Positions 5,092 to 63,697 of a DNA stretch of 64,000 bases are shown in pieces; within the stretch, counting starts at the first letter, position 1; each line of letters opens with the position of its first letter. This DNA is from Reclinomonas americana ATCC 50394 (Eukaryota), in the NCBI GenBank assembly GCA_048213135.1, contig PS015219.1:84225-148224 (forward strand), written 5' to 3'. The notes below the pieces were generated by a model. That model was not told the origin of the DNA, did no database searches, and worked only from the letters and a program-made list of their open reading frames with translations. Both the position numbers and the translations under genes were made by a program.

Positions 5092-6395
5092 ATGGAGCGG
5101 GCACGCAAGCTGTGTGAGGACAACAACGCATACGAGGCGTTCTCGTACCTCAAGTCACTGGCGTTTCGGTGAACTCATGCGTGTGTCTCCTGGTGTTGCA
5201 CATGTCCTCACACACACACACACACTCACGCAGCAAGCGACAAGCGGCACGGTCAGCCAAGCAATGCGAGGAGCTGCTGCTGACGGGCGCCTCGTTGATG
5301 AACGAGTATCGCCAGTGGGCACTGTCGGCGGCACTGCTGACCGACTTGTTCGAGTGGTTCCACAGCATTCAGCGCGAGTTGACTGCCGAGTTGCTCGGTA
5401 CGCCAGTGTGTGCGAGTGTGAGAGTCTGTGCAGGCACTCACGTCTGCCGTCGTGCACACACACACACCCGCAGCATCGACGCTGGAAGCGTTGCGCTACA
5501 TCCCACCCAGTGTCTACGTGGAGAAGAAGAAGGCTCTCGAGGCCGGCATCGAGTTGCGTCGTCTCCTCTTTTCAGAGGGAAACAAACGTGTGTTGTTGAC
5601 CTGTGCGAGCAGATGGTCGTCAGCCTACTTCCGCGTTCCGGGGAGCATGAAGGTCGGCTGCCCCGAGTATCACGCCATGCTGGCCAAGGATGCGACCGAG
5701 GCCGGTGACTTCCCCGTCGGTGTGTTCTCGGTGGTGCATGCAGTGTTGATCATCGTCATCATCGTCATCATCATTCCCGCCTTTCTGCCGTCGCAGCTGC
5801 GTCGCACTTTATCCGCTGCTCTGCGGCCGACGCGTTTGCCGACATGTTGATCTCGTGGGCGTCGGTCGGCAAGCCAGAGGAGATTGACTTGTTTTTGGCG
5901 CGTGCAGTCATGCAGTTGCGCGCAGCAGGAGGAGATAATGTCGTGGCTTTGCTCTCAGTCCTCATTCGATTTGCAGGTCGTTTTGTGTCAGCAAGGACGC
6001 ACCGGCATTGGCGCTGGTGAAGGAGTTTGTCGAGAAGAGCCACATGAGCGATGCACCGCTCATCCACTTTTCCGAGTTTCTGTGTCACGCGGTGGCCTCG
6101 GGCGACGCCCGTGCGTTCAACTTCCTGGTTTCGCAGTACAGAAAGTCGCTGGATCGCGATCCGGCATTCAGTCAGCTGCTGCAGGAAATCACACGTGTGT
6201 GCTTCCCCGATTCACTCGAGGCTCGGCGAGCGGCACCGGTACGCTGCTTCTTTTCCCTCGCTCCACTCTCGTCACACATCCTTGCTTGTCTCACTCGCCA
6301 GCGCTGCTTTGCAGTCACAAGACCTGTTTTCGACCATCTTGTCCAGTGTTATGGGTGGCGGCGCAGGTGGCCTCAGTGCTCTCTTCCCTCAATGA
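5092..6395 (+). CDS. GET4: GET4/TRC35 tail-anchored protein targeting factor
   Basis: The spliced product has MERARKLCEDNNAYEAFSYLKSLAFR, GCPEYHAMLA, EEIDLFLARAVMQ, YRKSLDRDPAFSQLLQEI and a C-terminal DLFSTILSSVMGG, all typical of the GET4 family. Confidence 0.85.
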
Positions 6396-6468
6396 GTCTC
6401 CTCCTCGGTATAATCGTGCAATTCAACAACAGTGCGTCTGCATTAGCGTCTTTTCTCTCTACAATCCA

Positions 6469-9400
6469 TTATCGTACGGCGCGAGCCAGTGGCAGCATGC
6501 CGAGTGTCGGCTCTCGCGAGGCCGGCAGCGGCACCAGTCGAACCAGGATGCTGCGGGTGGGACATGAGTGAGCGCGCGAGTGGAGACTTCCACGGTGGAT
6601 AGCGTGTGTCGGCTCACCGTTCTCCCACCGCCAGCGAAAAATCGGTAATGCCATCGACAGAGACAGTGTGCGACTTGCGCGGCCCATCAAACACGACTCG
6701 ACGCAGGTGCGCCGCTTGCGTCGACGGCACAAACAGGCCTTGCACTCGTGGACAGCACTCCAGCGCAAAGCGCACTCGCAACGCCGACACCTCCACCACC
6801 ACCTGTGCGCACGTTAGAGATGAGATGTGTGGATCGGGAATGAAAACACGGACACGGCCAAACGCACCGCCACCTCCTCCACCGCCAGTCGACTGGAAAT
6901 CGTCTGCAGATTCTGAGCATTAACCTTGCTGGTTGCCGCCTGCACAAGTTGTGCAACGGCCGTTGCGTGCGCGCAGAACTGCAGGGGTGCGAGGTGAGCG
7001 ACTTGTGACGTGTGTGATGCGCAATCTGGTTGGCGGGAGGTACCTCATCAACTGCAGCCTCATCCAAGTGCACATCCAGTGGTAGCGACAAGACGTCGCG
7101 TTTCAGCAAGCGGTGCACCGTCAGATCCATGTAGCTGCCAGCGACCAAGTCAGGGGTGAGTGAAAGAAAAGAGAGGTATGATGGCAGAGAGGAAACAAAT
7201 ACCGTCGCAGGGGCGCCACAAAGTGCGTGTGCGCCATGGTGTTCAGACCAACTGTGAGAAGAGCGACGTCAGGCACACAACAAATCCACACTCAAACAGC
7301 CACAACGCAGCGCGCAACAGTGAATCCAGCGGTCGGTCGGTGTCGTGGTATCAAAGCGTGCCAAGGCGCACGGCGGAATCACCTTGGTGACTTGAATACC
7401 GATGATCTACCACCGCAAACATCGATGTGAGCTTACAGCTGGCCAGCACAAAGTGCAACAATCATGGGACACACCATTGCCAGCGCCGGGTTCACCGTCA
7501 TCGCAAACTCCATCTCGCGATGAATGGCACGCAGCAGCGTGTGCGCCGACTCCTGGTAGAAGGTGTGGTCCACCACCTCCAGGTCGAGCGGGAGGACGGG
7601 CATCTGTGTGCACCACGTGCGCGCGGTGAGTAAATAATCATTAACCCCACTGTCGCGGTGGCGATACACACCTCCTCGTCACGGATCCTCAAACCGTAGC
7701 GACGACACAGTTCCGCCAGCCGCACCTGCTGCAGCGGCGCAATACTCGGTTGCACAGAGAGCGGACACAACTGCATGCGCTGAGTCGGTGAGAACGTAAA
7801 GCGAACACGCAAAACGCGAAGAGAGACAGTGCCCATGCCACCTTGCATCCAGTTTCCAACAGCCGCCGAGTGATCAACTGGTTAGCCACAAGAGCGCACT
7901 CGTCGATCGCGCGAGTTGCATCGAGCGTCTCGGCAGAGCGGAAACCGCGAGGCAAACCCTGCGCATCGAACGTCAACGCAATCTGCGGCACGTCAAACAC
8001 TCGAGCATCTGCATGCACAACAAAAAAAAAAAAAACAGACAATCAGCAACCGTCGATGCAAGAGGAGTGGCGTGTGCAACAGACAGACCGCCTTGTTGCA
8101 AGCGGCGCAGATGGCGGGGAAGCATCAACTGGCAGAAGAGACGAAGGAGCTCCGCCAGCTCGGCGGTGACGCCCGGAACATCGTCGTGCCCAGCCTGCAA
8201 GTTGCAGAGTGGGTCAGTCCAATAACTCACTGTCTAATGCAGGCCATCTCAAACACACCACGTACCATAACAAGCTGTGCTGCGTCGCGGGAAACCAACG
8301 ATGTGGGTCGAATCACACACTGACCGAGCCACGGCGTATCGGGGCACACTTGCCCATCCAACGTCATGTACCACACAATGGAGAGGGTGAAGAAATCGCG
8401 ATCAGTGCGCAGCGCGGCCATGTCTAGTACAGCCTGCGGCAGCATCTCTTGTTTCTACGCACACAAAGACACGCGCACATGAGCACTGGGAATTCACACG
8501 CGCACACATCACCACACACAAACCCTGTCGGACAGCTGGTACGTGCACACGCGCTTACGACACTCCAAATCCAACTCGGAGCCAGCCTCCACAAAGTGCG
8601 TAATGTCGGGCACATGAAGACCCTGCACAAACGTGTGTGGGCGAAAGACAGACAGACAGGGAAGATATCTGTTGGCAGATGACGCAACAACTTCACACAC
8701 GCCCGGGCGATCGGGCATCATGCGCAAGTGCACCGCCGCATCAAAGGGCGCCGCAAATGGCGGATTCTCAAACGCAAACAAGTGACCGCGCCCGCGCAAA
8801 TCCAGACGACCCGCAAATTCCGGCAGCTGGTGGCGCACCACATGAGCGTCGTTGACAAGAGAACAATAAGAGAGAAGCCAGAAGAAAACCTGTGCAGAAG
8901 AGGCAAGACGGCATGCTTCCGCGGTGAACGGCGGCAACGGCACTCGATTGGGTCCAGTCGGCAACGCGCACGAAGCAAGCACCGCATTGAACTGCACCTC
9001 CGGATCCGATTGCGAACCTGTACATTCATCGGCGCGATTCAGCAACGGCTTTCAGCGTGGCACAAACAAACAATGTAACCACACACCAAACACTGCCACC
9101 AACTTGCCCCGTGGATGCTTTCTGTTCTCCGGCCAGTCCACAATCTGCACTTGCACCATCGTACTTGCCGTTCTGCGCAACAAAACAATGAGCATCAGTG
9201 TGACGGCGATCAACAGCCGTCCGTGAAAACGCAACAGCGGCTGCTGCACGGCCCCATCCACTTCCACATCCACCAACGGCAACGAACGATCCGACGGCAC
9301 CATCAACAATCCACTGCGCGACACGATCAGAGTCAACAAAGGGCCAGCAACAGTGGATTAAAAAAGTCTCTGAGTCGCAACTCATGCGAGCGGAATCGCT

Positions 9401-12400
9401 GCATCACACCCACTGCAATCACTGGCGCCAATCGGTTCACGGCCACCACGCGGCCCACCGGTACACGCTGAAATCCGGGCGGGGGAATCACTCGATCTGA
9501 GGGGAAGAAGGGAACGTGTGAGTCTCAGCAGCATCACATCAACAGGTCAGCACATAGCAAGACGTAACCGAGCTCAGACACAATGTGCACACGTCGGGGG
9601 ACAGCCTGCAGACACACGTGTGAGTAGCACAAAACGCCAAACACACACACACAGTCCCACCGCGTCCCACCTCATCTGCCTCCTCATCCAAAAACAAATC
9701 CCCGTACACGCCCATCGGTTCACACGACTCATTGGTCGACTCCTGCGGGCGACAACACGTCGTCAGTTTCACCGCCCAACAGCCGCACATGATGACGACA
9801 ACAACGACAGCCATGACTCACCGGCACAATGGCCTCTTCGCCACACAAGAACACGTGCACCTCGTCGCCGCGCACGGCACGGTTCGCATGCACCAGGTCC
9901 GGCAAAAGGACACGCGGAACACCTTCTTCAGCAAATTCCACCCACCGTGAATCCGTCGACACCACACCCTTCAGCACCGTGCTCAACTGGCGGACGGAGA
10001 GAGAGAGGGAGAGAGAAAGTGAGCGGGTGTGAGAGACGATTGGATGGGACAGCAAGACACAGCTCTGTCAAACCTCCAGGCCCTTGCTGAGTACACTGGC
10101 GGGCAAATACTTGACGTATCCGGTCAACGGGTCCTTCATCTCCTCCACACAATGCGCCACCTCACCACGCATCGAATTCAACACCACCCAGCCACGCACC
10201 AGCCGGTCAAACTGCAGCAGACGAGAGTGCGATTCAGAATCAAATCGTAATTGGAGAAGCCTGTGGAACACGTACCTCCTCCACCGTGGACGGACGGTCC
10301 AAGCTGACCACCGATCTCATCGCCATGCACTGATACGCCATGTCCATCTGCTTTGAACGCATCTCTTTCAACTCGCGCTGCAGCGAGGCCACCACATCTT
10401 GATAGTACTGTTTCGCGGTGGTGTGAGCCGCACTGTCACACACACACACACACACGCGCGCGCTTCGTGCGAATGCAGGTGGCGCACCTTTTCGGATCGC
10501 GCCAGCTCCTGCTGTACGACTTGGCTCGCGCTCGCCGGTGACTTTGGTACTGCGACAGCTTGAATTTGCAAGTAAGTATGGTGGGTGGATTCATCCTCAG
10601 CGCGGCGCACCACGTATGCGTTACCTTGCACAAGATGCATCGCGTGCTCCACGTCACTGGCAGCGGCACGTAGAACCGACTGCTGCGCACTCGGCACCTC
10701 GGTCGCCACGGACGAGAGTCCACGAAGCGCTCGCTGTACGCGAACGGTGAGCAGTCAGACGAAGAGCATGTCATGCATGCGACGGAATCTGCTGCGTTAC
10801 CTGCAGCAGCGCCACAAGTCCCTCCGCCATTGCTGGAGCACCACCAGCTCCATTGGTCACCGGCGGCTGTGTCGCAGCAGCAGTGGCAAAAGACGCGCCA
10901 CCCAAAGACATCTGCGAATTCTTCATGATGATGATGCCAAAAGAGTGGGAAGAGGAGAGCAGACTGCGCTTCGCACGACTCACCGGCACCGGTGACATTG
11001 CTGGCGGCGTCGAGCCTGCAACCGCAGCCATGCTGGCACTACCCGCCATACCGGCACCAGCTACACGTGTATATCGCGAATGAGTAACGTGAGGCTTCGT
11101 TGCTATTCACGTCTCTCGCACTCACCACTCGGCGACACAAACGCGTCGTTTGCTGTTCGAGCACAAACAGGGTGAGTGTTGCGGAACTCAAAGATGCACG
11201 TGCATAAGGGCACTCAACGAGACTGCTGCGGACGGATCTGCGGCGAGGATGGATTGCTGTTTGTCTGCTACACGTGTCACGTGTGAGTCTACAACACGAT
11301 CGCCACCCCTCGCGAGCAAAAAGCAACTCAATCAAACGCGCACCATCGACGAAGCATCGGCGCCGCCACCTGCCACCTCTCCCAACATGGACGACACACG
11401 CTTCTCCACCACCGGCGTCACCGCCGGACGAACCACTGCTGCCGGCTTTCTCGCTGCCGCACCCACTCCACCGACCGCTGCCGGAGGTTTACGAGCCACC
11501 CGCACCACCTCACGTGCCTGCAGGGCCAGCAAATTTGGACGCTGCGGGAAGAAGAATAATATATTGTCAGAGAATGAAATAATATCGATGCACACAGTAA
11601 CGCGACGCAACATCCATGTGCACAATTCGGAATCGCACTTCCTTGCCATTCATCTGATCCGGCGTCACACCCGTCACCGAGCCATTCTCGAGATGATCCC
11701 ACGGAAAGTAGATACCAATCTTTTGATCCGCCGCTGTGCCGCACAAATATTTCACCCATTACGTACCACACAATAAAAAAGCAGGGCCAGAAAAAATGTC
11801 GGTGTACGTACCAACATAGGGTGCCACCACACGCTCGTACTCGGGATTCACAATAAAGCCGAACTGCCCGGGTTTACAATCCAGCAGGCGCCCAACATGC
11901 TCCGAGTGCACCGGAAACGTCACACGCAGCTTCTCATCCAGCGACATCTTCTTGTTTGCTGCACCCTTGCCACCAGCACCACCCGCCACCGCTGCCGCCG
12001 CCGAGCGACTCGACTTGTCGCTCCACGGCTGCGCAAACACCTCTTCTTCAGTCAACTCGGCAATTTCCGGTCCCTGAGAGAGGTGTGAGTCTTGGTGGCA
12101 CGAAACACACCCGTCCCCATTACACGCACACACACAGACCTCCTGCCACAGCCGCTCCCCTGGCACCGCCGGATGAGCGGCATGCGGATCGCTCCCTTGT
12201 CGCTTCCGCTGATCACGCCCACCATTCCGTTGCAACGTCCCACTGGCCCACTCCTGCAAATCCGAGTCGTCACCCGACGCGTGCTTACCGCCCTTGGCCT
12301 TTGCATCCATCGCCTTTCCGCCACCGCCACCACCATTCACATCATGATCTGCATCCACCNNNNNNNNNNNNNNNNNNNNNNNNNNNNNNNNNNNNNNNNN

Positions 12401-12937: not shown

Positions 12938-13109
12938 CTCAGTTGCTGCACAATCGCATGTCAGGCACACAAAGCAGGAGAGGGAGGAGAGGAGGGAGAG
13001 AGAGCACCTTGGTCTCGCACCGCAATCAATGGTCAGACTCGGTGGAAATTTCGAAGTGATGATGAATGTCGGCCTCGTCCATCAATCACGCAAAAAACGA
13101 ACTCAAATA

Positions 13110-16100: not shown

Positions 16101-18447
16101 CGGCCGCGAAGCAACCAGCAAGTGAGACGACGGCGCCGACTGCCGTCAAGCAAGCAGCAAGCGAGACACCGGCGCCGTCGGCCACGAAGCAATCTGTAAG
16201 TGAGACGACGACGACGTCGACTCCTGTCAAGCAATCTGCAAGTGTGGCAAAGGAGGCCGCGTCCGCAGAAACCGCACACGCCACCGCCGCCGCTGCTGCC
16301 GCTGCTGCTGCTGCTGCTGTTGCCGTCGAAGACGGTGAGACCGCTGCGGAGACGACGACACCGGCCGAGGCTGTCGCGGAGTCAGCGGTGGAGACAGCGA
16401 CTGTCGCTGCCGAGAAGTCTACTGCGGACGCACCTGGAGAGTCGTCGGCGGCGGCGTCCTCTGCCGTCGAACCAGTTGCTTCAGAAGCCGACAACTCCAC
16501 TGCAGCGCCTGTCGCGTCGCCTGCGGCTGATAGCAGCAGTGCGCCATCAGCAGTCGACGACCTGACGGCGGAGGTTGTTGTTGTGCCACCATCCAGCATG
16601 ACGGAGAAGACTGCCACTTCCACTGGTCGCCGAAGTGCGGCTGCGGCCGATTCGCCGTCGGCTACTGCTGCCGCCGCGCGTGCAGATTCAGCGCCTCCGT
16701 CTATCGATGCTGCTAGCGTGGAGGAGACCCCTGCAGTGGCACCCGAGCCGCCATTGGTGACGGAGACAGTTGAGGCGACGGCACCTGTCGCCGTTCCTTC
16801 CGCTGCTCCCGCTGCGTCGGATTCCGATGCCAGCGAGGAACGCACGGAGGAAAAAGCGACCACCACCACAAGCACTGCCGCTACCGCTGCCGTGGTCGAC
16901 GAGTCTGCCGCAGCGGCAAAATCGGCAAGTGAGGAGGTGCATTCAGCGCAGGAGTCGACGGCAACCACAACAGATGCGACTGCATCCTCTGCCGAGGAGC
17001 CATCGAGCGCCGACACGCCGACGGCGGAGTCATCAACTGCTGCGCCGGAGGGTTCTCAAGCTGTGCCGACGGCGAGTGCTGAGACGACGACAAGTGAATC
17101 ACCGGCTACGCCCGTCGAGGCACCGCAGGAGGCAACGGTGGCCGCCACGACGACCGCAGCACCCGCCGCAACTCCAGCAGCCTCGCCCTCAGCGCCACCG
17201 GCACCGGAGAAGACGGCACAGTCAGCACCTTCATCATCTTCATCGCCGCCACCACCAGTCCCGCCGAGCCATGCGGCCGCCACCAACTCCACGTTGGTGC
17301 ATGTGGTGGTGCCGCCGATGTACCACCCCCCCATGGCGGTGGCCGCGAGCGCACTTGGCACTCCACCGGCACTCACGCAAGGCTTGCCGCCGCTGGCTCG
17401 AGTCCTCGCGAAGCCTCCCTCGAGCAAGGACGGCGTGTTCAAGATGCTCACCGCCCGAGGTACGTCCCTTCATACATCAGTAGTTTCACGTTGGAGTGTG
17501 TCTCACTCCTCCTCCCACCACCACGTGCAGTCAAGGCGCTGGAGACTCTCAGCGAGCACTACCTCAAGGCGCTGGTCGATCTCAACAAGGTCGTGCGCAG
17601 CTCGAGCCAGGCCAGCGTCGCTCGCGTGGTGGTCGACTTGACGAAGCGCATTCAGTCACAAGAGAACAAGCTGGACGACCAGAAGCGCAGCCTCTCCAAG
17701 TCACACGATGCACTGAAGTACCTTTCCCGCGTCCTGGATGCCTCGGAAGAGCGCTGGAAGCGTCGTGTGGAGGAGCTGCAAGTGCAGCAGCGCGTGTTTT
17801 TCGTGTGGACCATCCTGGCGTGTGTGGTCACGGCCGTGGCCGTCACACTCATCATCATGTTCCTCATGTCTTTTTCGTGGACGTTGCGTTGGTGATGCGT
17901 CACATGTCTTCGCTTTGCCACATCCTCTTTCTCTCACTCACGCACATGTGTGTTCCATGCGCGCAGTCGCCGCAGGCTGGGTGTACTGACCGATGTGTCG
18001 CCACCGACACCCATCGATCTCGACTGCCTGCCGCCTGGTACGCCAGTGGACCACATTCCACTACCGTCGCCGGGACACCGCAGCGTGATTCCACGATCGC
18101 CCAGCGCCGCAAGAAGTGCGTCTCTCTCTTTTTCTCTCCATCATTTCCCTGCTACTGACGGCATGTGCACAGTGCTGGCATACGCGCAGGACGAGTCGGC
18201 GAACGACGGCAGCAGCACGGGCGCCACCGACACGGGAACTCCCGCACCACTGCCCTCCACCCAATTACAAAAGCTGGGTCACATGTCGGAGACCACGTCT
18301 CCGCAGAACTCGCCGCGCGTTCGCTTCCCCGCATCGCCGGTCAACAACAACACGCTGCTGTCGCAGCTGGCGCAGCGACAAAAGGCTCAATTACTGACTG
18401 CCGGCTACGGCGCCAGTAGGCGGCGGCACAGCATGTCGACTTACTAG
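13110..18447 (+). CDS. Mid-SUN domain membrane protein (SLP1/SUCO-like) with signal peptide, Ala/Thr/Ser/Pro mucin-like region, coiled coil and TM helix
   Basis: SUN motifs RLFNYAASSVGAKVL, ILNDDQDQYMLTPC, IELSEEV..ANFEYFSSSVRQF and LLSHYGKEHYCTLTTFRVYG. Also DGVFKMLTARVKALE and the TM segment VFFVWTILACVVTAVAVTLIIMFLM. Confidence 0.88.
15992..16245 (+). repeat. Coding 39-nt tandem repeat (13 aa, KQxASETxAPTAx), about 6.5 units
   Basis: AAGCAA unit starts fall at 15992, 16031, 16070, 16109, 16148, 16187 and 16229. Confidence 0.9.
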
Positions 18448-18507: not shown

Positions 18508-20741
18508 TTAATATCTTTGGTAATCGGCGCCCTCGGGTGCCACTGGGTCGCCGACCTGTGTGCGTGGGGTGGGCACAGAGGCAAAGGAAGGGGGAATGGA
18601 AGGGGAAGGGGTTACGAAACGTAGAGTTGGGTAAAGTCGTCCAGGAGGTAGACGTTGCCTGGGGGAGAGGATGTGAGTGATGAGGGGAAAGAGGAGAAGT
18701 AGAGAGAGAGAGGGAGGGGGGGAGGGAGAGGGAGAAGAAGGGAGAAATTGAAGGGGGAGCCAGAAGAAGTGATTGTGGACGAGTTTCAGATGCAGGAGAG
18801 CAGAAAGGCAAGAGCGAGAGGAATATCGAGAGATGGAGAGGGAAGAGGGAAGAGAGAAGGAAGAAAAAAAGAGCGAAAGTGAAGAATGAACACAGAGTCA
18901 TGCTTGAGAGAGTCAGAGGTGGAAAGAGAGAGAGAGAGAGTGAAATGGAAGTGATCACTCTCGACATCTTCGCAGATTGAGAGTAAGCGTGACGAGAGAG
19001 AGAGAGAAAGAGAGCAGAAAGACAAGAAACAGAGAGAAGAAGGGAGAAAGAGAAAAGGAGCAAGAGTGACGAAAGTGAATCATGCACGGAGACAGTGGCG
19101 GAGAGAGAGAGAGAAAAAGTAGCAAATGAGCACTCTTGACAGAGCTGACAGAAAGTGTGACGAGAGAGAGAGAGAGAAAGAGAGAAGACATGATCCTCGA
19201 CAATACTCAGCATCAACCGCAAGTACGGGAGAAAGAGCTGAAAGGCAAACAGACAGGAAGTGAAGAAAGAGAGAAGCAACGGGAGGCAAAGAGAGTGATG
19301 CATGAACGTACAGGTATGTTTGAGAAAGAAACGGAAGTGATTCCTACATGACAGCTCCGTGCACGGTGCAAGTGGGAACAGTTCAGAGAAAGTGTGACAC
19401 GAGAGAGAGAGAGAGAGAGAAGACATTATCCGTGACAACCCTCTACCTCAGCCGTCGCTTGCATGCAGGTTAAAGGGGAGATATCCAGTGGAAAGAGAGA
19501 GAGCGCGCGTGTGTGTGTGTGTGAGAGAGAGAGCGTGTGTGTGTGTGTGTGAGACAGCGTGTGTGTGTGAGAGAGAGGAGGGAGAGATCGAAGCGTGCGA
19601 CGAGACACTACCTTTGACGTAGAGATCGTTGTAGACGGTGGTACAAAAGCCATTCGGGTTGGCAGGATTCGGATTGCTCCAGGTGTATCCCATGCCAGTG
19701 GTTGGCGGAGTGAACGTCGTCGGATACCACGACTTGTCGTCGGGAATGTTCTGCGTGCACTCGTGCAAGTGAGGATGCGGTGTTTCATCGCCCAGTGTCG
19801 TGCGCTTGACGCAACAAAGGCCAACACGTCCGAGTATGTGCTGGCGAGAACGCTTTGCACCTGCAGTAATGCTCCACGTCAGCACACAGATAAACACGCG
19901 ACGCGGCGGGCGACGCAACATAGATGTTCTTGTCGACGAGCACAAAGATGCCCTTGGAGACGACAAAGTCGCCGAGAATGTACAGGAACTCGGGCATGGT
20001 GGGGTCGTCGGCGAAGGGCGGGCCAGGTGCCCTTTACGAGGCAAGTGCGGGGAGTGAATGAGAGGCGAAGGCAAGGAGAAAGGGAGAGAGGGGAGAGGAG
20101 AGGGTGGGAGTGAGGAAGGGAGTGAGTGAGAGGCGTGTAATTAGAGGCGAATGATGGGAGGCACATTCTGTGGGCAAGGAGAGGAAGAGAGGAAGGGAGT
20201 GACTGAGAGGCGTGAAATGAGAGGCACATGTAGGCAAGGAGAGGAAGAGCGAGGGGAGAGGAAGGGAGAGGGAGAGGAAGCGAGAGGTTTGGAGAGGGGG
20301 AAGAGGAAAGGAGAGGAAGGGAGAGGAAAGGAGAGGAGGGGAGAGGAGGGGAGAGCGAGGGGAGAGGAAGAGGGGAAAGAGAGAGAGAGAAAGAGAGAGA
20401 GAGAGGGAGCGAGAAGAAGAACACAAAGGACGGGGGAGAACGGGAGACAGGAAGAGTGAGAAGGAGATGGTGAACGGGAGGCAGAGAGAACGATAGTACA
20501 AGAGCGAAGAAAGAGAGAGATAACAGGAGAGGGAAAAAAGAGAACAGCGATAATCACGGTACCTATCGGACACAGCATCGATCATCTCTCTCTCCCTCTC
20601 TCTCATCTCACACCCACCACACAACAATGCCCGGCAAAATGTTTGGGTCATTCACATCATAGACAGGCGGGCCATAACGATACACATTGCCGCCTTGCCA
20701 CAAGTCAGTGAGCGATCAAACACACACACATAAACACACAA

Positions 20742-20807
<66 letters not shown>

Positions 20808-21008: not shown

Positions 21009-21257
21009 ATACACACAAACCAACAACCAGGTTTCCTTGAATGCACGTCTGCACAGCGGTCTCCACGCGACCGGGAAAGCATTGCACCTGTGCGCACAAA
21101 GAGAGAGAGAGAGAGAGAGTGAGTCTCGCGTGTGTAAGTGCGTGTGTATCATTGACGAAACATCAGAGTATGGTGCACTGCCTGCCCACACGTTGCATGG
21201 ATCCGCTTGCACGACACACACAAGTGCGAGGATGATGATGAAAATGGCGCCGTGCAT
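18508..21257 (-). CDS. Orphan secreted protein of roughly 215 aa with repeated G[ND]xxV beta-type motifs
   Basis: Signal peptide MHGAIFIIILALVCVVQA. About nine exons join in frame through GT-AG introns and end VGDPVAPEGADYQRY-TAA. Confidence 0.65.
20717..21006. repeat. Intronic (CA)n/(CAA)n microsatellite tracts flanking a 15-nt exon candidate
   Basis: Long ACAC runs at about 20717-20820 and 20925-21006. Confidence 0.9.
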
Positions 21258-21430: not shown

Positions 21431-22572
21431 ATGGCCGTGTCGTGTGTCGGTGGGCAGTGTCCAGTCGAGTCCTCTGTGACGCGTTTGTTGCGTGTCATTG
21501 TAACTGCGTGTTTGATGTCTCTCGCTCATCCATCGCGCAGAGTTCTTGATATCGATCTTGAGGGTGAACAGAGGAAGCGTGAAGCGCTTGCCACGAGAGC
21601 GTCTGTGCTGGAGCGCGAGATGCAGGAGCTTGCGTGCGAGGTGCAGCAGCTGCAGTGTCATCATCAGGCACTCGCGAGCAATGTGGATCTTGTTGCGGAC
21701 TCGCTGGAGGCTCACGGGAGGGATGTGCATTGTTTCGAGTATCGTTTGGCGGCCAATGCGGAGGAGGTCGAGCGACTGAGGGGCGAGATGGAGGAGAACG
21801 AAGGGCGCATCCAGCGGCTGGAAACAGACTTCCGCGAGGCGCAACAGGAGCACGAGGTCGCGCAGTTGTGTTCTCGAATGTCGGAGCAGGAGGATGGACT
21901 GTCCGCGATGAGGAGACGAATCCAGGAGTGCGAGGTTTGCAGTTCCTGTGTATATATGCAACAGGATGTGCAGGGTGTGTGAGGTGACGTGAATGCGGGT
22001 CGCACAGGCTACGTTCGCTGCAGAGAAGCTGCGGTGTTTGGCGCTGGGCGAGACGAGAAGAAGGGAGGTGGAAGGCGTCCGCGATCGCCTCATTCTGCGC
22101 GAGTTGGCTCGCACTACGGAGCAGTTCATTCTCCGGCTGGTCCGTGAGCGGTTCGTGGAGGACATGAACGAGTTGGAGGAGGCGTGTGGCGAGTTTCGCA
22201 CGCTGTCGCAGCTACTCAGGGCACTTCGAGGGCAGACTGAAGGTGCGACACCACCATGTTTTGGTCTCGATTGTGTTTGCGCTCACAGTGATCGCAGCAG
22301 ATCCAGCAGTGCGGGCGTTCATTGGCGATGTGATTGGGTGGCGGCCGCGGCGAGGCGACTCGGTGATGGTTGTCAAGGATGCACTGGAGCGATTCAAGGA
22401 GCTGGGCGACGGGGGCTCGCACGGCTGTGTGGCGAAGGAGTTAATTGACTGGACGAGGGACGAGCTTGGTGAGCTGGCGATGCGATGCAGACTTGCGATT
22501 GGAGATGTTGGTGTTGCGGTGGTGGAGTTGTACTGGCGATTGTGCCGGACGAATTCGAAGGCGTCGGCGTGA
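21431..22572 (+). CDS. Orphan coiled-coil protein
   Basis: ORFs 21431-21982, 21993-22448 and 22186-22572 can be joined by GT-AG introns near 21935-22007 and 22243-22300. Heptad E/R/L content. Confidence 0.5.
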
Positions 22573-43537: not shown

Positions 43538-44499
43538 ATGGAGTCTGAGTTGGTCGCCCATCTGCTTGATCCGTGGCTCCTCTTCCCGTTTGTGGGACTG
43601 GGCCTGGCACTGGCCATTTCCCGTCGCCACCCCGACTCGGCGCCCCTGTCGCGCACCGATACGTGGATCGCCAACTGGGCGCTCATCAACGGCATCATCA
43701 TTCACGGCTTCCTCGATGGGTGAGTGCGTGCGTGCGTGCGTGCGTGTGTGTGTGTGTGTGTGTTTGCTGACATTTGTTCCGACTTTGGCACGCGCGCGCA
43801 TGCAGTGTCATTGGTCTGCTTGGCCAGATTCCCCTGCTGGCGCGTGAGTATGAGCGCCTTGACAAGCGCTACTCGTCTGGCGAGCCGAATGTTGCGTGTT
43901 GTGTGTGTGCAATTTGTTTTTCCCATGCATTTTCTGTCTGATACATGCAACCAGGTGATGCACATTTCTGCGCTGGAGCTGCTGGTGTACATGCCACTGT
44001 GCGTGTGGTGGTATCGTGCGATCATGAAGCAGCAGCCGATTCGTCACGCGCTCAACTTGGTGGTGTCGAGCATTCAGATTTACGGTGCTGCATGCATCGT
44101 ATCGTTTATTGAGTGGTGGGTTTTATCTCACTCATGCACGCATTCTCCATGGATGCAGGCACCGTCATCTTTGCCGGTGTGGAGACATATCGCGGCTTCC
44201 CCAACATCCCGTGGGACCCGGAGAACCCCTTCTCCGGCTCCACCCTCTTCTACTTCTGGCTGTTCTTTGTGGTGGCCAACCCGATCTGGTGAGCTCATGC
44301 TGTGCCGTGTGCTGCGTGCTGCATGCACACACGCATGACTGACTCGCCGTTGTGCAGGATCATTGTGCCGTTCCTGTGCATCCTGGACGCCTGGAAGGGC
44401 ATCCATGTGCTGGGCGCCGCCGCCGCCAGCTCCATCAAGACCAAGACCAGCAACGGTGGTGCCGTCGCCGGCAAGGTCGAGGCCAAGAAGGATAAGTGA
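43538..44499 (+). CDS. EBP/EBPL (EXPERA) sterol isomerase-like membrane protein
   Basis: WALINGIIIHGFLDG, EYERLDKRY, SSIQIYGTVIF and FYFWLFFVVANPIWIIVP. Confidence 0.85.
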
Positions 44500-47619: not shown

Positions 47620-48432
47620 ATGAGCGTGTCATATGAGGAGTTTGATGCGTTTGTGACGCGCTACTGGTCGGCGCTACTGGTCGCCTCCGCAGTGCTCTTT
47701 TTCCTGTGCAGCTGGCTCTTTGGCAAGTTCAAGGCGATGCTCTATCGCTTGCGTTCCACGCGTTGCGTCTCACACACACTCTCTCTCTGTGACTTCTGTG
47801 TGTGCCTCTCTCTCATGCACGCGCACGGACGCAGGCTTTGATCGCAACGACCGCCGTGTCAAGGCCATCTTTGAGCAAAAGCGCGAGCGGCAGCTGGAAG
47901 AGGAGGAGGAGCGAGTGCGAGAGCGCTTGCGGCAGCAGCAGGAGCGACAGGAGGCCATGAGGTTGGCCTCTCTCTTCTCTTTCTCTCTCACGCATTCCCT
48001 TCGGCATTGACGCTCACTTCTTGCCACAGACAACAGGCAGTGGAGCGCGCCATCCCCAACGTCCTGCAGGCGCAACAGCGGCGGAGAAGACTCGGCGGTG
48101 GGGCCACGGAGCGAGTTGCGTAGTGTGCTGATTCTCTGTCTTGCTGGGGGAGTGTGATTGCTGACGCGACACTGTCAACGCAGCCGCCACGTGTCGAGAG
48201 ACGCGACGGCGAGAACGACAGTGAGAGTGGCAGTGGCAGTGAGCGTGACGACTCGCCTCCGCCACGAGCGCCCGCTCCGCCTCCGGTGTCACGGCCGCCG
48301 AACCCCTTCTCCTCGTCGTCCTCCAGCAACAGCCGGGCTTACAACCCGCTGGATGGCGGTGGCGGATTCCGCACGTACAGGCCCACTCGCCGCTACGGCA
48401 ATGGTCGGTGCGGTCCGTCCGGATGAGGTTAA
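47620..48432 (+). CDS. SELENOS: Selenoprotein S-like protein; in-frame TGA (48424-48426) predicted to encode Sec
   Basis: N-terminal TM helix, charged coiled coil, then the tail AYNPLDGGGGFRTYRPTRRYGNGRCGPSG-TGA-GGT-TAA, matching the SelS YNPL..RPxRR..G-U-G-stop pattern. Confidence 0.85.
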
Positions 48433-48610: not shown

Positions 48611-49838
48611 CTATCGTTTACTCCTCACTGGCGGCGGTGCGGTAATGTCGAATGGCTCGTCGTCCGTCTTTGTGATAATATCTAACTCGTCGTTATCGCC
48701 ACCGTCGCCATCGTCGGCTTCGGCATCGGGTGCGGAGCCCATCACCGGCACCTGCTTCTCTCGTAGCATCTGAACAATGGCAGCACGTAAGTCCGCGATA
48801 CCCGCACTTCGCTTGCTGCTGGTGACAATGAGCAGAGGCACAAACAGCCCCGCCTCGCCGTATCTCAACAAGGCCTGCGCAGCGTTGTGGTGTAAGCACA
48901 TCGTCGGCAATCGCCACAAACGAGAAACGCAACTGACTGCATCACGGTGTTGGCGACGGTAGACAGTTGCGCATCGTTGACACAGTCGGCCTTGGTGAGC
49001 ACGACCTGGAACGGTCGAGAGCACGACACGAGGAAGTCCATGAACTCCAAGTCGGCCGGCATGAGATCGCCTCGTCGACTGTCGATGAGAATCAGAATGC
49101 GCTTCAGACTGCACGAGGCGAGAAGAGAAGACGGTGGGTGAGAACACCAAGCACGCACGAGCACACACTCTCCTCTCCTGCATGCAACCTTCTCGACGTG
49201 GTCATGCTGTGGTGAATCAGGTCGTGGAAACGCTCGGTGGCCTGTCGCGGAGCATCGGCGTGCCCGTACCCCGGCAGATCCAACAGCAGCACCTTGCCCG
49301 CCATTTGCGCATTGCGGATGCCGTAGTAGTTCAGCGTTTGCGTGCGACCCTGTGTACGTGCACTGAGTCCAGCACGCAACGCGAACAAGAGAGGCGAGGA
49401 AGCCACCGACCGGCGTCTTGGAGATCTTGACGAGCGCCTTTTGGTTGACCAGCGCATTGATGAGCGACGACTTGCCGACATTGGAGCGGCCGGCAAAGGC
49501 CACCGTGGGTATCTGTCGCTCGTTGAGTCGCTCGGCCTCGTGCACGCTGTACAGCAGATCGAAATCCTGCGAAAACATGACCCTGATCCTCAGTGAGATC
49601 CTCAGCGATCAGCTGGTGTGTATCAAGAAGCAAAAGAACACGCGCACCTCGCCACGCGATGCTGCGCAGCGTTGGGCAGTGGCAAGCGGAAAGGATTGAC
49701 AAATGCATGCTGGCGACCTGTGCAGGAGAAAGATCAGCGACTCATCTCCACTGGCGATGCTCCCTGTGTGTGCTTATCACCAGTGGCAGATGTGGAGAAG
49801 AGGCGATGCACGCAGAGGCCTCGTCGCAGAGCTTGCAT
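48611..49838 (-). CDS. engB: EngB/YihA (GTPBP8-like) ribosome biogenesis GTPase, probably organelle-targeted
   Basis: G1 [28 protein letters not shown]3 DLPGYG and G4 LTKAD. The N-terminus [17 protein letters not shown] is presequence-like. Confidence 0.92.
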
Positions 49839-50000
49839 TGTGTATGTCCCTTTGTCGGATCAACAGATCACCGACCTTCCACTCCGCTGCTTGCATGTCG
49901 AGCCACGACAGTTGCGCTCTGCTTAGTGTGTCTCCCACACTCTGTACACACACCTCTCACTCACTCACCGTGTGCAGACTCGGCTGCACCGGCGATCGCC

Positions 50001-51385
50001 ATGCGACAGTTCATCGCAGGCGCCAGTGCAGGTGTGTGCTTGCTTGGTCTCTCCGCTCTCCCTCTCTCTCCCTCTTCCCTCTGTCTCACACATGCACGCA
50101 GGCTTTGTGGCGGACCTCACCTCATTCCCTTTCGACACCATCCGAGCACGCATGATGACTCAAAAGGTGTGCCTGCTCTCTCTTTCCACTCTGCTCGCTT
50201 TCATCACTGTTGATAATGATCCGCGATCATCGACGTAGGCCGGCAGCGGCGAGTACTACAAGGGCGTGGGCGATGCAGTGCGCACCATTATCCGCACCGA
50301 GGGTGTGACGGCGTTCTGGCGAGGTGCAAGCACTGGTACGTATGCAAGCATTTGCGTCTTCCGAGACGCCTCCCCCATTGTGCGATGGTTACCACCGTGC
50401 TTGTTTGCTCTTGCTGTGCAGTGGCCGCCGCCACCGGTCCTGCGCATGCATTGTACTTTGGAGGCTACGAGACCAGCAAGAGGCTGCTGTCGTACGACGG
50501 TTCCGGACGACAGGAGCGGCCTCTGGCGCACTTTGTGTCGGGATGGGCGGCGAACCTGTCGGGAGCCATTGTGTGGACTCCCATGGTGACTGTGGATGTC
50601 GTCGTTGTTGTCTGCTTTCGTGGACGACAAAGCTGACTTTTGTGCGTCAAAAAAACCAGGATGTGGTAAAGCAGCGCATTCAGGCCAAGGTCGGCGCCAA
50701 CACGGTGGTGGCCACAGCAAAGGACATTATGCGTCAGCAGGGCATCCGCGGATTCTTCAAGGTGCAGCAGAGTGGCATTCTGCGACGCCTTTGTGTGTGT
50801 GCTTGCTTGCTAATCGATGATGGTTGCAGGGCTTCCTAATCGGCCAGGCAACGTGGGGACCATTCACTGGCCTCTACTTTTTGGTACGCACACACTCGTC
50901 TCCACCTCCACACATGCACGTGAATAGTAACCGTGCGCGTGTGTGTGCACGTGCCGCAGGGCTATGAATCACTAAAGACACTGATTGGCCGCGTCCTCGA
51001 CCGCGACCGCAATCACATCCCGCTGCCGGCCGCGCTCATGGCGGGTGTGGTGGCGGGTGCGGCGGCCGCGAGTATTACCACGCCTCTGGATTTTGTCAAG
51101 ACACGATACCAGGTGTTCCGCGACAGCGGGAACAGTGCGCGTGCCGTGTACCGAGCCATTGTGTCCTCCAGCGAGGGTGGCCTGCGTCAGTTTTTCCGTG
51201 GCACTACCGCGCGCATGATGTGGATCGGACCCAATTGTGGAATCACCATCGCAGCTTGTTGCGTCCTTCGCTGCGTGTGTTTGTGATCCCAGTGACAACA
51301 CTCACCCTTTCTTTCGCACGCCACAGATGAGGCCTTCAAACGCCTGTACCACGCAGCTGCAGAACCGACCGTAGAGAAGGACTAA
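50001..51385 (+). CDS. Mitochondrial carrier (SLC25), mitoferrin-like
   Basis: Three signature motifs PFDTIRAR, PMDVVKQR and PLDFVKTR, plus GPAHALYFGGYE. Confidence 0.9.
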
Positions 51386-52397: not shown

Positions 52398-52474
52398 CCA
52401 TCGTCGACACCATGTTGCTTGCCACATTACAAATCCGACAATCAACGCGACGGACAGACAGACAGACGGAAGGA

Positions 52475-54648
52475 ATGTTGCGCGCCTCGGCGAGACGTCG
52501 CGGTAACGGCGGTGGCAGCTGCTCCCACTGCCAGCACGACGAGTACAGCAACAGCAGTGGCGAGCGGCACGATCACTCAACCACCGACGACGAGACCGAC
52601 GAATCATCACCTCGTGTCGCGACCGTTGCCTTTGCCGCAGCCGCCGCCTCCTCTTCTTTGTCGTCTGTGGCGCGCGCCAGTGATGGCAGTGTGGTGACTG
52701 AGCTGCACTTCTCACGCGACGCACGCGCTCTCGATGCCGAAGATCCGCCATCGCTGACCGTCTACATTCGAGCGTGCGCGCGTATGGGAGTGGCACTGGG
52801 ACCGGATCCGGCAGTGGTGGTCGCACTCAAGCTGCCGTCGGTCACACTTGTGCGGCCAAGGTTTGTGTGTGCTTGTGTGTGCCTCGTCTTCTTCTTCTTC
52901 GTCTTGGTGTTTGACTGTGAGAGTGCGTGCGTGTGTGTGTGTGTATTCGCATATTCCCCCGCGGTTCAGTCGTACGTGGAGTGAGAGCGATGTGTTGGCG
53001 GTGTGCGAGGCGCTGATTCACGACAATTCCATCACTGCGTTGGACTTGTCGAGCCGGTGTCGCAAGTGTGGACCCGACTGGTGAGTGTGTGTGTGCGCGC
53101 GCGTGTGTGTGTGGAGGACCATTCAATCATTAACACTCAACTCCGGTTCCGGCGAATGTTCTCGTTGTTTCTGTTTCTTCGTTTCACCGCGCGCTTTCTT
53201 CCTTTCACCACTCCTTCATTCCATCTTGCTCGCGCTCGTTCTCCTCCTCCTGTGCCTCCGTGCTCTGTTTCTCCCCGCCGTGCGTCTCTCGTGCGTTTAT
53301 CGCTTCTCCGTTCTCCATTTTTGGTATCGATGAATATTCCCCAGCACGTGCTGATTCGCGCTGTGCGCTGCAGGCTCCGTGTGCTGTGTGCGCTGCTCGC
53401 CCGCAACCACCGCATCACGTCGGTGAACTTGGCCTCCAATCGCATCGACAATGAGGTGCGTGAACATCTCTTGCTGCGTTTGTCCATATTTATCCGCCCA
53501 ATTTCTTGCATGCTCGAAACAGGGCGCATTCCTTCTGGCCGACCTGCTGATGCACGACGAGAACCTCAACAATCTGCACGTGCTCAACCTGCGCTCCAAC
53601 AACATCAAGGTGGACGGTGCGCAGGCTCTGGCCAAGGCGCTCTCACACAACCGCACTCTCGTCTCTTTCGACATTTCAAATAACTCGATCCGCGTCGACG
53701 GCGCGGCGCTCATTATGAATGCCGCCGCCCAGAATGTCAATATCACGATTGCCAATGCCGAGGTTCGAGGGATGCTTTTGCTGTTGTTGGTGTCCCCGAA
53801 CTGACTCGAGATCGTGCGTGCAGGGCAATTTGCTGATCGAGGAGCTGGCCAACGCCATCACGCACGGCGTCGGACTGTTCCTGGCCTTCCTCGGCGGCGT
53901 CTACATGATGACGCAGGCCGCACAGCGAACCACCGTGCACATGATGGCGTGCGCCATTTTTGTGTCGGCACTGACGCTGATGTATGCCGCCTCCACTTTC
54001 TACCACTCGTTCTTCCTGCTCGACACGGTTTCGTCTGCACTCCCCAATCACGCGTGTCGTGTGTCTATGCCTCTCTCTTACCAAACCATATGGTTCATGC
54101 AGGCGCGTGTCATTTTCAAGATCCTCGATCGCGGCTTCATCTACGTACTCATTGCCGGCACCTACACCCCGTTCCTCATGATCAACCTGTATGGCACGTG
54201 GACTGGACCGATGCTGATGGCTGGCCAATGGGGCCTGGCACTATTCGGCATCTTCCTCAGCGTGCGCCAGTACACCTCGGTGCTGACCACACTGCTGTAC
54301 GTGTGCATGGGCTGGCTGGTGATGTTGAACCCGAAGCCCTTTGCCGACTCGATCAGCGGCTACGGAATGTGGTGGGTGGCGGTCGGCGGCATCTTTTACA
54401 CTGGCGGCGTTTACTTTTTCCTGAAGGACGAGGTGAAGCCGATCTACCACAGCATTTGGCATGGTGTGTGTGTGTGTTGTGTGCACATACGCGAAGCTGT
54501 CGCTGCATTAGCTGACTCGATGTGTGCGGCAGTGTTTGTGATGCTGGGCTCGTTCAGCCACTACTTTGCCATCTTGTGGTACGTGGTGCCGCACCGCATT
54601 GTGGCGCTGGAGGGTGCCGACGACACCATGTTCCGCGAACTGGCATGA
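52475..54648 (+). CDS. Fusion of RI-type leucine-rich repeats to a hemolysin III/PAQR multi-TM domain
   Basis: LRRs ITALDLS, ITSVNLASNRIDNEGA, LHVLNLRSNNIKVDGA and LVSFDISNNSIRVDGA join in frame (intron 53763-53823) to EELANAITHGVG..STFYH..LDRGFIYVLIAGTYTPF..HSIWH..H. Confidence 0.85.
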
Positions 54649-61595: not shown

Positions 61596-61629
<34 letters not shown>

Positions 61630-62221: not shown

Positions 62222-62481
62222 GTGAGACAACTCAACCACGCCGCCGCAGCGACTGAGACCAGAGAGGACGACTGGGGGTGTTGCTCCAGTGGCTTTCGGA
62301 GTCCCCTGTTGGTTTCTTCTTTGCTCCGAACTCTTTTCTCTCGCTCACAGCCTAAAAACGGTCGCAGTATGTGCTCGCGCGATCACACTGTCCCATCACA
62401 ATGCTCGTGCGACGTCGCGCTCTTGTGCTCCTGCGCCATCTCGCGCAACCGCCCTCAGTGCGACCGTTGAGCACTACTGGC

Positions 62482-63697
62482 ATGTCACATCAAGTGCAGC
62501 GCACAAAGCTGCAGGAGATCATGTCGAGCAAGGAGCAAGCAGAAGGTCTCTCTCTCTCACACTCTCTCCTTGGCCGCTGCGCACAGCTCGTTCTCACGTG
62601 TGAGCAGGGTGGGATGAGGCATGGCGCACGGGTGTCACTCCGTGGGAGACCAGTGAGGCGTGGTGCGCATTGTTCATCATCATCGTCCTCATCTTTGTTT
62701 CTTTGTGTTGACATCTCCCCTGCATGCAGTCCTCTGCTGCGACGACTGGTGGCCACCAACTGGTTTGCGCATCATCAGGCGCGACCGGATGGTGGACGCG
62801 CACTGGTCCCTGGAATGGTGCATCCTCCCCTCGTCGCGATCGATCGCTGTCTTCTTTTTGCTGANNNNNNNNNNNNNNNNNNNNCTACACTTGCACAGGG
62901 AACGGGATACGATTGCCACGCGCTCAAGGGCGCCTTCCGCACAGTGGTCGGGCTCGATCTGGTGGAGGTGGCCGTGGAGCGTGCCCGCAAGGTGCTCACT
63001 CTTTCTCTCTTCGTCTCTCTCTCTCTCTCTCTCTCTCATACACAATCGTCGCAGATCGCGGAGGAGCGCAAGGTGGAAGGCTGTGAGTTTATTGCCGCCG
63101 ACTTTTTCACTTACAAGCCCGACAAGCCGTACTCGTTCATCTTTGAGTTGCGTGTGCCGTGCTGCTGCTGCTCGTCTGCCGAGTGCCCGTCACTCACACG
63201 TTCTCCATCTCGTGGTCGCAGTTATGCGTTGCGTCTCTCCGCAAGACGAGAGCAGTGGTCGGTGTGGACATGCTGACCCCTTTCCCTGCCACGCAGCTTC
63301 CTGGCCGCACTGCCACCGTCCCTGCGACAGCCGTGGGCAGAGAAGGTCTGCCATTCCTTGCCGCCGTCTCTGCGACGTAGATTGTGACTGACAACCGTGC
63401 ATCAAAGATGAAGGAATTGTTGTGCCCGGGCGGCGAACTGCTGACGCTCATCTTCCCGCTGGGCACCTACGAGGGCGGCCCGCCATACGCCATGAGCTAC
63501 GAGCTGTTGCGTGAAGTTGTCCCCGAATACCAGTATCATTGGTGCAACGTCGCGCGACTTACACGTTTTTTCCGCGCAGTGTGCAAGGCTTGCTGCGGCC
63601 GCTCGGCTTTGAGAACATCTACGACGAACCAGTGGTGAAGGACTCGATCAAGCCACGCCGAGGCGCCGAGCGTGCCGTCGTATGGCGACGTCCATGA
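62482..63697 (+). CDS. Thiol/halide S-methyltransferase (TPMT/HOL1-like SAM-dependent methyltransferase)
   Basis: GWDEAWRTGVTPWE, RALVPGMGTGYD, ADFF, FIFDYAFLAALPP, PGGELLTLIFP and GGPPY. Confidence 0.9.

Follow-up and report, generated by a model that had tools for sequence, protein, structure and literature searches.

A one-base-shifted GTTGCGT donor class among the predicted introns of a 64-kb window of Reclinomonas americana

Introduction

In a 64,000-nucleotide (nt) stretch of Reclinomonas americana ATCC 50394 (contig PS015219.1, positions 84,225 to 148,224; hereafter the window), the commonest heptamer at the start of predicted introns is GTTGCGT, a 5' splice site (donor) in which the GCGT block stands one base further into the intron than in GTGCGT. 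Judged by predicted junctions, GTTGCGT appears to be a real and frequent start of otherwise ordinary GT-AG spliceosomal introns. A first-pass annotation had listed 34 introns starting with GTTGCG and had described them as a mainstream donor class. That description holds, since GTTGCG makes up 12-15% of predicted donors, and the observation is stronger than the original count suggested.

The best-supported mechanism, to which we give about an even chance, is that these are ordinary GT-AG introns which would be recognised one nucleotide out of register. All results presented here rest on the DNA of this one 64-kb window and on homologous proteins.

Gene models

Introns were predicted with a purpose-written semi-Markov Viterbi gene finder that reads both strands and combines a 3-periodic coding model, an acceptor matrix and an intron-length prior, with all parameters trained on the window itself. 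It was run in two modes. In the blind mode every GT received the same donor score, and the choice among them was made via coding potential, frame, acceptor and length only. In the learned mode the donor model was derived from the gene finder's own output. The two-strand gene finder predicts about 240 introns in 31 gene segments; intron lengths at the 5th, 25th, 50th, 75th and 95th percentiles are 51, 62, 68, 75 and 99 nt. For the homology tests, homologues were fetched with single exons and the spliced models were then aligned to them locally.

Positions are numbered from the boundary, -1 being the last exon base and +1 the first intron base, and a slash marks a junction. Ordinary donors are defined by G at +5 and T at +6, and shifted donors by T at +3, G at +6 and T at +7. 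A wider shifted class is defined by T at +3 and G at +6, without G at +5.

GTTGCG at predicted donors

All 34 listed positions carry GTTGCG on the strand given for them, and at 28 of these the hexamer continues with T. Across the whole window GTTGCG is only mildly enriched (84 matches against 64.2 ± 8.5 in shuffles), and the heptamer GTTGCGT is found 39 times where 15.0 are expected. In the blind run GTTGCG was the top donor hexamer (28/239 predicted introns), and this run recovered 25 of the 34 claimed sites. The learned run placed the hexamer at 35 of 242 introns and recovered 31 of the 34. At the remaining three sites (8688, 19919 and 33581) the model took a GT lying 12, 17 and 5 nt away, respectively, which was also frame-compatible. 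All 34 sites begin with GT, and the 31 modelled introns end in AG, as the model requires.

GTTGCG is far more frequent at donors than at GT sites elsewhere, 14.46% of predicted donors in the learned run (35/242) against 0.1-0.7%; equal frequencies had been named beforehand as the outcome that would speak against the class. Its share is 0.71% among other exonic GTs in sense orientation (16/2259), 0.54% within introns (9/1656), 0.13% between genes (1/780) and 0.70% on the antisense strand (23/3266), which amounts to a 20-27-fold enrichment of learned-run donors over other genic GT sites. The blind count (28/239), set against a base rate of 0.7%, is enriched approximately 17-fold (binomial p = 2.7e-25).

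The heptamer is more telling still on the sense strand of genes, where GTTGCGT almost always marks an intron start. Its 39 copies comprise 28 predicted donors, 5 antisense copies and 6 further sense-strand copies, 3 of the latter being the alternative donors preferred by the first-pass annotation. It is the commonest donor heptamer in both the learned run (28/225) and the blind run (21/228). The wider shifted class accounts for 44 of 225 short introns, or approximately 20% of donors. The second commonest donor heptamer is GTGTGTG (13/225), for example at 26775 (-), 9086 (-) and 50032 (+), and runs of (GT)n or (TG)n at intron starts give rise to most of the low-complexity BLAST matches between introns.

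Homologous proteins provide a test of single junctions, and all six junctions that could be tested in this way (26349, 26952, 63147, 63228, 63506 and 51258) align without gaps. Three of them lie in a TPMT-family methyltransferase gene on the plus strand, where the segment FIFD/YA/FLAAL, which holds the FD/YA/F motif of the first-pass annotation, aligns ungapped with (F/V)YDYTFLCAL in 10 of 10 homologues. This alignment requires a microexon of 6 nt (TTATGC, 63222..63227), which is needed for the family motif D-Y-(A/T)-F and is flanked by two GTTGCG introns, 63147..63221 (donor tga/GTTGCGTG, learned run) and 63228..63296 (donor tgc/GTTGCGTC, both runs). Further along the same gene, intron 63506..63579 (donor gct/GTTGCGTG, both runs) splits MSYEL/VQGLL, which is likewise ungapped against 10 homologues.

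In an acyl-protein thioesterase-like gene on the minus strand, intron 26291..26349 (donor tgc/GTTGCGTG, learned run) falls inside HGNA/DE, and this proposed junction is ungapped against 13 homologues. Intron 26888..26952 of the same gene (donor cac/GTTGCGTT, both runs) follows HGLGD. The model had placed its acceptor 6 nt too early; once this is moved by 6 nt to the third CAG of CAGCAGCAG, HGLGD-T fits the homologues, and the donor fits as it stands. The tandem acceptor CAGCAGCAG spans 26885-26893 (-); homology favours its third CAG, and acceptors lying in frame 3 and 6 nt before it could yield NAGNAG-type isoforms. In a mitochondrial carrier gene, intron 51258..51326 (+; donor ctt/GTTGCGTC, learned run) splits ITIAA/Y/EAFK. 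The carrier-homologous exon reaches 51257, the junction is ungapped against 12 homologues, and the model had a spurious 3-nt exon there.

Two further sites received partial tests. At 8688 (-), in the RNB exonuclease gene, a donor had been claimed within EV/GLHVPD. The downstream exon begins exactly at GLHVPD, which corresponds to GVHIADV of DIS3L1 and to position 37 of the RNB profile, but the donor itself (8682..8688, gtt/GTTGCGT) was not recovered, the model using the GT at 8700, and no RNB match was found for the exon upstream. At 5915 (+) the exons on either side align with a solved GET4 chain, one ending at residue 179 and the other starting at residue 212, which is consistent with the claimed intron, but 25 residues are left unaligned.

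The last exon base and the composition of the class

The link to a non-G exon end was borne out. At 32 of the 34 GTTGCG sites the exon ends in a base other than G, the exceptions being 31169 and 32872. Among donors predicted in both runs, G stands at -1 in 56 of 67 ordinary donors against 5 of 30 shifted ones (Fisher p = 3.7e-10), and the blind run by itself gives 56/68 and 5/30. The wider shifted class has A 15, T 13, C 12 and G 4 at -1 (n = 44); it supplies 40 of the 85 donors where -1 is not G, but only 4 of the 140 where it is. Donors of the wider shifted class are the main donor kind where the exon ends in a base other than G.

Composition at -1 in shifted donors does not differ from that at -2 in ordinary donors (A 33, C 19, G 17, T 19, n = 88; p = 0.36), and it differs strongly from that at ordinary -1 (p = 4e-12). 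The base following the GCGT core has the same order of preference, C > G > T > A, in the shifted and ordinary classes. The inserted base is T throughout the wider class (44 donors), which follows from how the class is defined.

It had been suggested that each of the shifted donors equals one of the ordinary donors of the window plus one T. In proportion this does not apply, as GCGT forms the core of 28 shifted donors out of 37 but of only 22 ordinary donors out of 88 (p = 2.2e-7). The shifted class comes down, in essence, to a single heptamer rather than to every ordinary donor with a T added. Of the eight relatives with other cores listed alongside it, the learned run recovered 7 as donors and the blind run 6; the eighth, at 61693, exists on the minus strand as cag/GTTACGT, but the model used 61678 instead. 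A base other than T occupies the extra position in just 4 candidate donors, GTGACGT at 13234 (+) and 31916 (-), GTCGCGT at 19902 (-) and GTACCGT at 30214 (-). Three of these 4 follow a non-G exon end, and 13234 adjoins a doubtful 3-nt exon.

The introns behind the shifted donors

Apart from the donor, shifted introns are much like ordinary ones, with median lengths of 69 and 67.5 nt, GC contents of 0.537 and 0.536, and the same GCAG or ACAG acceptors. The branch motif CTRAY occurs in 13 of the 38 shifted introns, in 24 of the 88 ordinary ones and in 17 of 99 others. An all-against-all BLASTN comparison of the 242 introns revealed no intron families; the only matches lay between the introns of a gene present in two copies or in GT-rich stretches of low complexity.

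Two other readings were considered and rejected. U12-type introns have donors of the RTATCCT type; only 3 matches to [AG]TATCCT occur on both strands of the window, and GTTGCG does not resemble this motif. A boundary moved to TT...AGG would call for G after the acceptor. The base at this position is unbiased in shifted introns (A 14, G 10, T 11, C 9), with G in only 10 of 44, and at 63147 the altered boundary would replace a D that is invariant in 10 of 10 homologues.

Recognition of the shifted donors

Shifted or bulged pairing with U1, a variant U1 and altered recognition by U6 had all been raised as explanations. Of these, indirect evidence favours a shifted register over a bulge; it also suggests that GUUGCGU pairs poorly with the standard U1 5' end, whatever the register. 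Under the shifted register, whichever RNA makes the first contact with the 5' splice site (U1, most probably, through its 5' end) would bind one nucleotide off its usual position. The intron +1 G would take the place of the exon -1 G, the T at +3 would stand in for the T at +2, and the GCGU block would be read at +4 to +7 rather than +3 to +6. The cut would still be made before GU, presumably fixed later by U6, U5 and Prp8. As the shifted duplex would be one pair short, only the best-pairing core, GCGU, may be tolerated, and we read the restriction to this core as compensation for the lost pair. When right-aligned, G/GTGCGT and /GTTGCGT differ at one position. A shift is preferred to a bulge because G is unfavoured at -1, because the exon-side composition is displaced by one base, and because the extra base is nearly always T.

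Pairing was calculated with the 11-nt 5' end of human U1 (PMC4856993), which may differ from that of this organism. On cga/GTTGCGTCG it forms 3 Watson-Crick and 2 wobble pairs in the canonical register, and 5 Watson-Crick and 1 wobble pair in the shifted one. Mean predicted duplex energies are -0.95 kcal/mol for the 44 shifted donors against -6.55 kcal/mol for 88 ordinary donors. Human U1 is predicted to pair better with GUUGAGU (-4.1 kcal/mol) and GUUAAGU (-4.0 kcal/mol) than with GUUGCGU (-1.8 kcal/mol), and the first two are rare or absent as donors.

The ordinary donors also depart from what a standard U1 would be expected to favour. GTAAGT serves as a donor in none of the 242 introns despite 14 occurrences in the window, and after GTG the +4 base of ordinary donors is C in 22, T in 20 and A in 14, with GTGGGT absent. 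The preference for GCGU and the lack of GTAAGT donors suggest a U1 without the standard ACUUAC. When 64 variants of the U1 11-mer (positions 5, 6 and 8) were scored on 225 donors against 900 decoy GTs, G at position 5 performed best (area under the curve, AUC, 0.793), and the standard 11-mer ranked 8th of the 64 (AUC 0.704). On this modelling, the U1 of the organism more likely has G opposite the C of GCGU.

Alternative explanations

Few RNA sequences are as conserved as the 5' ends of U1, which speaks against a re-tuned or dedicated U1, and the exon-side shift together with the identical downstream preference would follow more simply from one RNA used in two registers. A re-tuned or dedicated U1 is, even so, the most interesting alternative still in play. 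Such a U1 might be a second paralogue fully complementary to GUUGCGU, or a single U1 matching GUUGCGU perfectly, for which G/GUGCGU would be the mismatched variant; the two classes would then reflect two RNAs or two pairing solutions. This would account for GTTGCGT being the single commonest donor heptamer, for a class built on one heptamer (GCGT core in 28 of 37) rather than on a generic plus-T rule, for the very poor pairing of GUUGCGU with the standard U1 5' end, and for the 28-31 of 34 sense-strand GTTGCGT copies in genes that act as predicted donors. Changes in small nuclear RNA (snRNA) were likewise raised by Irimia and Roy where they discuss the GTGCGTG consensus of Ostreococcus (PMC2483917). 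We consider this explanation rather unlikely as it stands. A bulge would leave U1 unaltered and paired at -1, +1 and +2, with one T flipped out and pairing resumed at GCGU; such a register, bulged at +3 (or +2), has been documented at human sites according to PMC4856993, and the four donors with an extra base other than T fit it better than they fit a shift. It keeps the pair between C9 of U1 and the -1 G, however, and so predicts that G is favoured at -1, the reverse of what is found (5/30 against 56/67, and 4/44 in the wider class). The extra base, moreover, is almost always T, as pairing with A7 of U1 would require in a shifted duplex, and we judge the bulge to be improbable.

Recognition might instead depend mainly on factors other than U1, such as an altered ACAGAGA region of U6, contacts of U5, or a protein binding UUGCGU. 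Near-absent pairing of these donors with the standard U1 5' end points in this direction, and U6 must in any case accommodate the conserved G and U at +6 and +7 later. What such factors would leave unexplained is the mirrored behaviour of the -1 G, needed for GTG... and not for GTTG..., which a sliding complementary RNA predicts, and their probability seems to us quite low. That the class is an artefact of the gene models, with true junctions at other GTs and GTTGCG merely close to exon ends, is very improbable. Three of the 34 sites were not chosen by the models, which contain errors, and the junctions are predictions; on the other side, the donor-blind run retains the roughly 17-fold enrichment, 6 of 6 homology tests fit to the residue, and the motif holds no other GT except that at +6/+7. 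Shared descent would make these introns copies of a mobile introner element carrying its own GTTGCGT end. The extreme intron density recalls such elements, and introner families are known in marine protists according to the relevant part of PMC3879977. The shifted introns, however, share no sequence beyond the donor and equal other introns in length, GC content and acceptors, so they are not likely to be introner copies; this reading appears largely refuted within the window, and we find it hardly credible.

Recognition one nucleotide out of register remains the reading we prefer, and several points weigh against it. The register has been read solely from donor statistics in a single 64-kb window, at junctions predicted from DNA and homologous proteins. 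The learned run is prone to over-calling the motif that it has learned, which makes the blind figure the unbiased one. The gene finder is crude, and homology exposed three modelling errors, all on the acceptor or exon side, so individual gene models should not be over-trusted. The U1 variants were ranked with nearest-neighbour energies that include neither pseudouridine nor proteins, on donors that were partly chosen by the model. The four non-T donors would fit a bulge better than a shift. The preference of ordinary donors for G at -1 could stem partly from U5 or Prp8 rather than U1, in which case its loss in the shifted class says less about the U1 register. Finally, a shift leaves unexplained how U6 is positioned with G and U at +6 and +7.

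Beyond the mechanism at single donors, it is possible that the lineage has re-tuned its recognition of 5' splice sites, through a non-standard or a second U1, with about one fifth of its introns defined off-register from the site of cleavage. We put this forward tentatively and would not bet on it.

Comparison with known systems

Division of donors into kinds has precedents. Parker et al. reportedly distinguish two classes of 5' splice site, AG//GU versus //GURAG, in which a strong exon side goes with a weak intron side and vice versa. The window shares with this scheme an anticorrelation between the -1 G and intron positions, but its second class is the same motif displaced by one base, and not a stronger match in the same register.

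The closest likeness is to the shifted (+1) register of human introns, in which all pairs between the 5' splice site and U1 are displaced by one position and the cut stays at GU (Roca and Krainer 2009, as presented in PMC4856993). There too the U1-complementary block lies one base further in, and the +1 G can pair with the U1 base that normally meets the -1 G. In the human data reported in that paper, validated noncanonical registers make up 3119 of 201,541 sites (1.5%), and the register with a bulge at +2/+3 accounts for 54-68 sites (PMC4856993). The human shifted register is rare, whereas GTTGCG makes up 12-15% of donors in the window and the wider class approximately 20%; the human core is AAGU and has genetic proof behind it, whereas the core in the window is GCGU and its register is read from sequence. 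The human +2/+3 bulge register, as the same source describes it (Roca et al. 2012, per PMC4856993), also has GUU followed by a U1-complementary block with one extra U. It keeps the -1 G pair, whereas G is unfavoured at -1 in the window class.

The GTGCGT(G) core of the ordinary donors, and some of the branch motifs, which are of CTGAC type, resemble those of Mamiellophyceae (Ostreococcus, Micromonas, Bathycoccus), whose ordinary introns are described in passages of three papers as having AG/GTGCGT(G) donors and CTGAC branch sites (PMC2483917, PMC3879977, PMC3491373). The same passages describe BOC introns, from one chromosome region packed with short introns, as having 'GTRNGT' or no conserved signals (PMC2483917, PMC3879977, PMC3491373). 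The window resembles this BOC1 region in its compact genes, its very many short introns and its weak overall signals. The Mamiellophyceae introns described there are 40-65 nt long and AT-rich, unlike those of the window (median 68 nt, 54% GC), and the passages mention no GTTGCGT class, which is abundant in the window. Furthermore, no named green-algal protein is among the protein matches of the window. We would treat the likeness as a lead and not as a placement.

A GTTGCG or GUUGCG donor class was found nowhere among the literature matches listed, which cover open-access text, supplementary logos apart. What appears to be new is that one shifted heptamer is the commonest donor, shifted registers themselves being already known from human introns.

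Individual donor sites

The other claimed introns found in both runs on the plus strand are 5553..5612 (donor cga/GTTGCGTC) and 5915..5976 (gca/GTTGCGCG) in the GET4-like gene, where the first is accompanied by GET4 exon matches, 17883..17966 (gac/GTTGCGTT) in a gene with a Sad1/UNC domain, 25782..25841 (agc/GTTGCGTT) in a BTB-domain gene, 33899..33981 (gat/GTTGCGTT), 43891..43954 (aat/GTTGCGTG) in an EBP/EXPERA gene, where the next exon matches the EBP profile, and 48115..48183 (cga/GTTGCGTA).

Those on the minus strand, again in both runs, include 7252..7318 (act/GTTGCGCG) in the RNB exonuclease gene, 9173..9235 (gct/GTTGCGTT), 9314..9381 (tga/GTTGCGAC), 11542..11611 (gat/GTTGCGTC) and 19751..19815 (ttt/GTTGCGTC). 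A gene for a multi-pass membrane protein has 30992..31055 (tat/GTTGCGTC); it is followed along the window by 31103..31169 (ttg/GTTGCGTT, G at -1), 31444..31506 (aaa/GTTGCGCC), 32006..32071 (gca/GTTGCGTC), 32173..32245 (tgc/GTTGCGTT) and 32793..32872 (ttg/GTTGCGTC, G at -1). The list is completed by 36270..36333 (cgc/GTTGCGTC) in a VPS-type gene, 40112..40188 (cga/GTTGCGTG), 46744..46828 (cga/GTTGCGTT) and 48875..48933 (tca/GTTGCGTT) in a GTPase gene.

Introns 32476..32543 (-; gca/GTTGCGTC), 47143..47202 (-; atc/GTTGCGTC) and 47762..47834 (+; cgc/GTTGCGTC) were predicted in the learned run only. Besides 8688, two claimed donors are present in the DNA and were recovered in neither run, namely 19913..19919 (-; tat/GTTGCGT), in place of which the model used 19902 (cgc/GTCGCGT), and 33581..33587 (+; gga/GTTGCGT), in place of which it used 33586 (tgc/GTTGTGT).

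Four GTTGCG donors that had not been listed were added on the plus strand. Introns 49911..49977 (aca/GTTGCGCT) and 52477..52548 (aat/GTTGCGCG) were found in both runs, and 21487..21571 (ttt/GTTGCGTG) and 34380..34435 (gat/GTTGCGAT) in the learned run only.

Relatives of the heptamer on the minus strand are those at 9568, 11218, 18620, 21161, 40003 and 61693. Their predicted introns are 9497..9568 (tcg/GTTACGT), 11153..11218 (ctc/GTTGAGT), 18556..18620 (tac/GTTTCGT), 21088..21161 (gat/GTTTCGT; learned run only) and 39941..40003 (aca/GTTTTGT), the donor at 61693 being the unrecovered one. The plus strand has 27741..27811 (aca/GTTTCGT) and 34983..35054 (aga/GTTGAGT), together with 54028..54102 (acg/GTTTCGT), a relative that had not been listed.

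Other features of the window

The window has a GC content of approximately 55%, with 2707 masked bases in 11 runs. Its intron density is extreme, the 240 or so short introns (median 68 nt) per 64 kb corresponding to roughly one per 150 nt of coding sequence, and intergenic spacers are very short throughout. Predicted microexons of 3-16 nt are frequent; the one confirmed by homology is the 6-nt microexon at 63222-63227.

Exon-level matches to Pfam or PDB entries confirm that real genes are present, the families being Abhydrolase_2, Mito_carr, GET4, RNB, EBP, BTB, Sad1_UNC, a GTPase and a clathrin/VPS region. TPMT-family matches came from a homology search with an exon of the window. The closest protein matches for the searched exons have 59% and 64% identity. 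A metagenome scan with an exon of 294 amino acids found no relatives, and a 41-amino-acid exon of the membrane protein gene gave no homology matches. The exons of this gene have no relatives among solved structures or in Pfam, and a 'mucolipin-like' label initially given to it was dropped on that account.

The gene at 41240-43450 (+) has exons of up to 882 nt, which is unusually long here. The atlas clusters nearest to this gene are mostly bacterial, with TMEM260-type families in a minority of their members. An inverted duplication of approximately 1.2 kb (56270-57474 and 61202-62397), 91-98% identical, flanks a GAF/phosphodiesterase gene. Both arms hold a copy of one small gene with introns, whose intron sequences are conserved from copy to copy.

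No RNA genes, snRNA genes included, were found in the window at the Rfam gathering score, and at E <= 1 there were only weak matches resembling microRNA (miRNA). Some of these fall at 37134-37266, about 120 nt within a long predicted intron of the VPS-type gene, where many unrelated miRNA-hairpin models match weakly on both strands (E 0.02-0.8), which suggests a long hairpin or palindrome. Within this stretch, a repeat search seeded at 12 nt detected no inverted repeats of 40 nt or longer.

Implications

Register-shifted recognition of the 5' splice site has been established for a small number of human sites by laborious suppressor genetics. If the present reading is true, an organism whose commonest single donor is the shifted form would offer thousands of natural test cases. 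These would bear on how the cut site is fixed independently of U1 binding, on how U6 handles a displaced G and U, and on the trade-off in donor strength between exon and intron positions. If recognition has been re-tuned in this lineage, the register of U1 would be naturally uncoupled from the position of the cut across a whole genome, and U6 would routinely accept a displaced or bulged 5' splice site.

There may also be consequences for annotation. In position-weight logos and in standard gene finders, two registers merge into one weak consensus; such genomes would be mis-annotated as a result, and this blurring is a plausible cause of reports of 'no conserved signal' in intron-dense regions. 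For the organism itself, the analysis makes a specific prediction, namely that the 5' end of its U1 would carry G opposite the C of GCGU.

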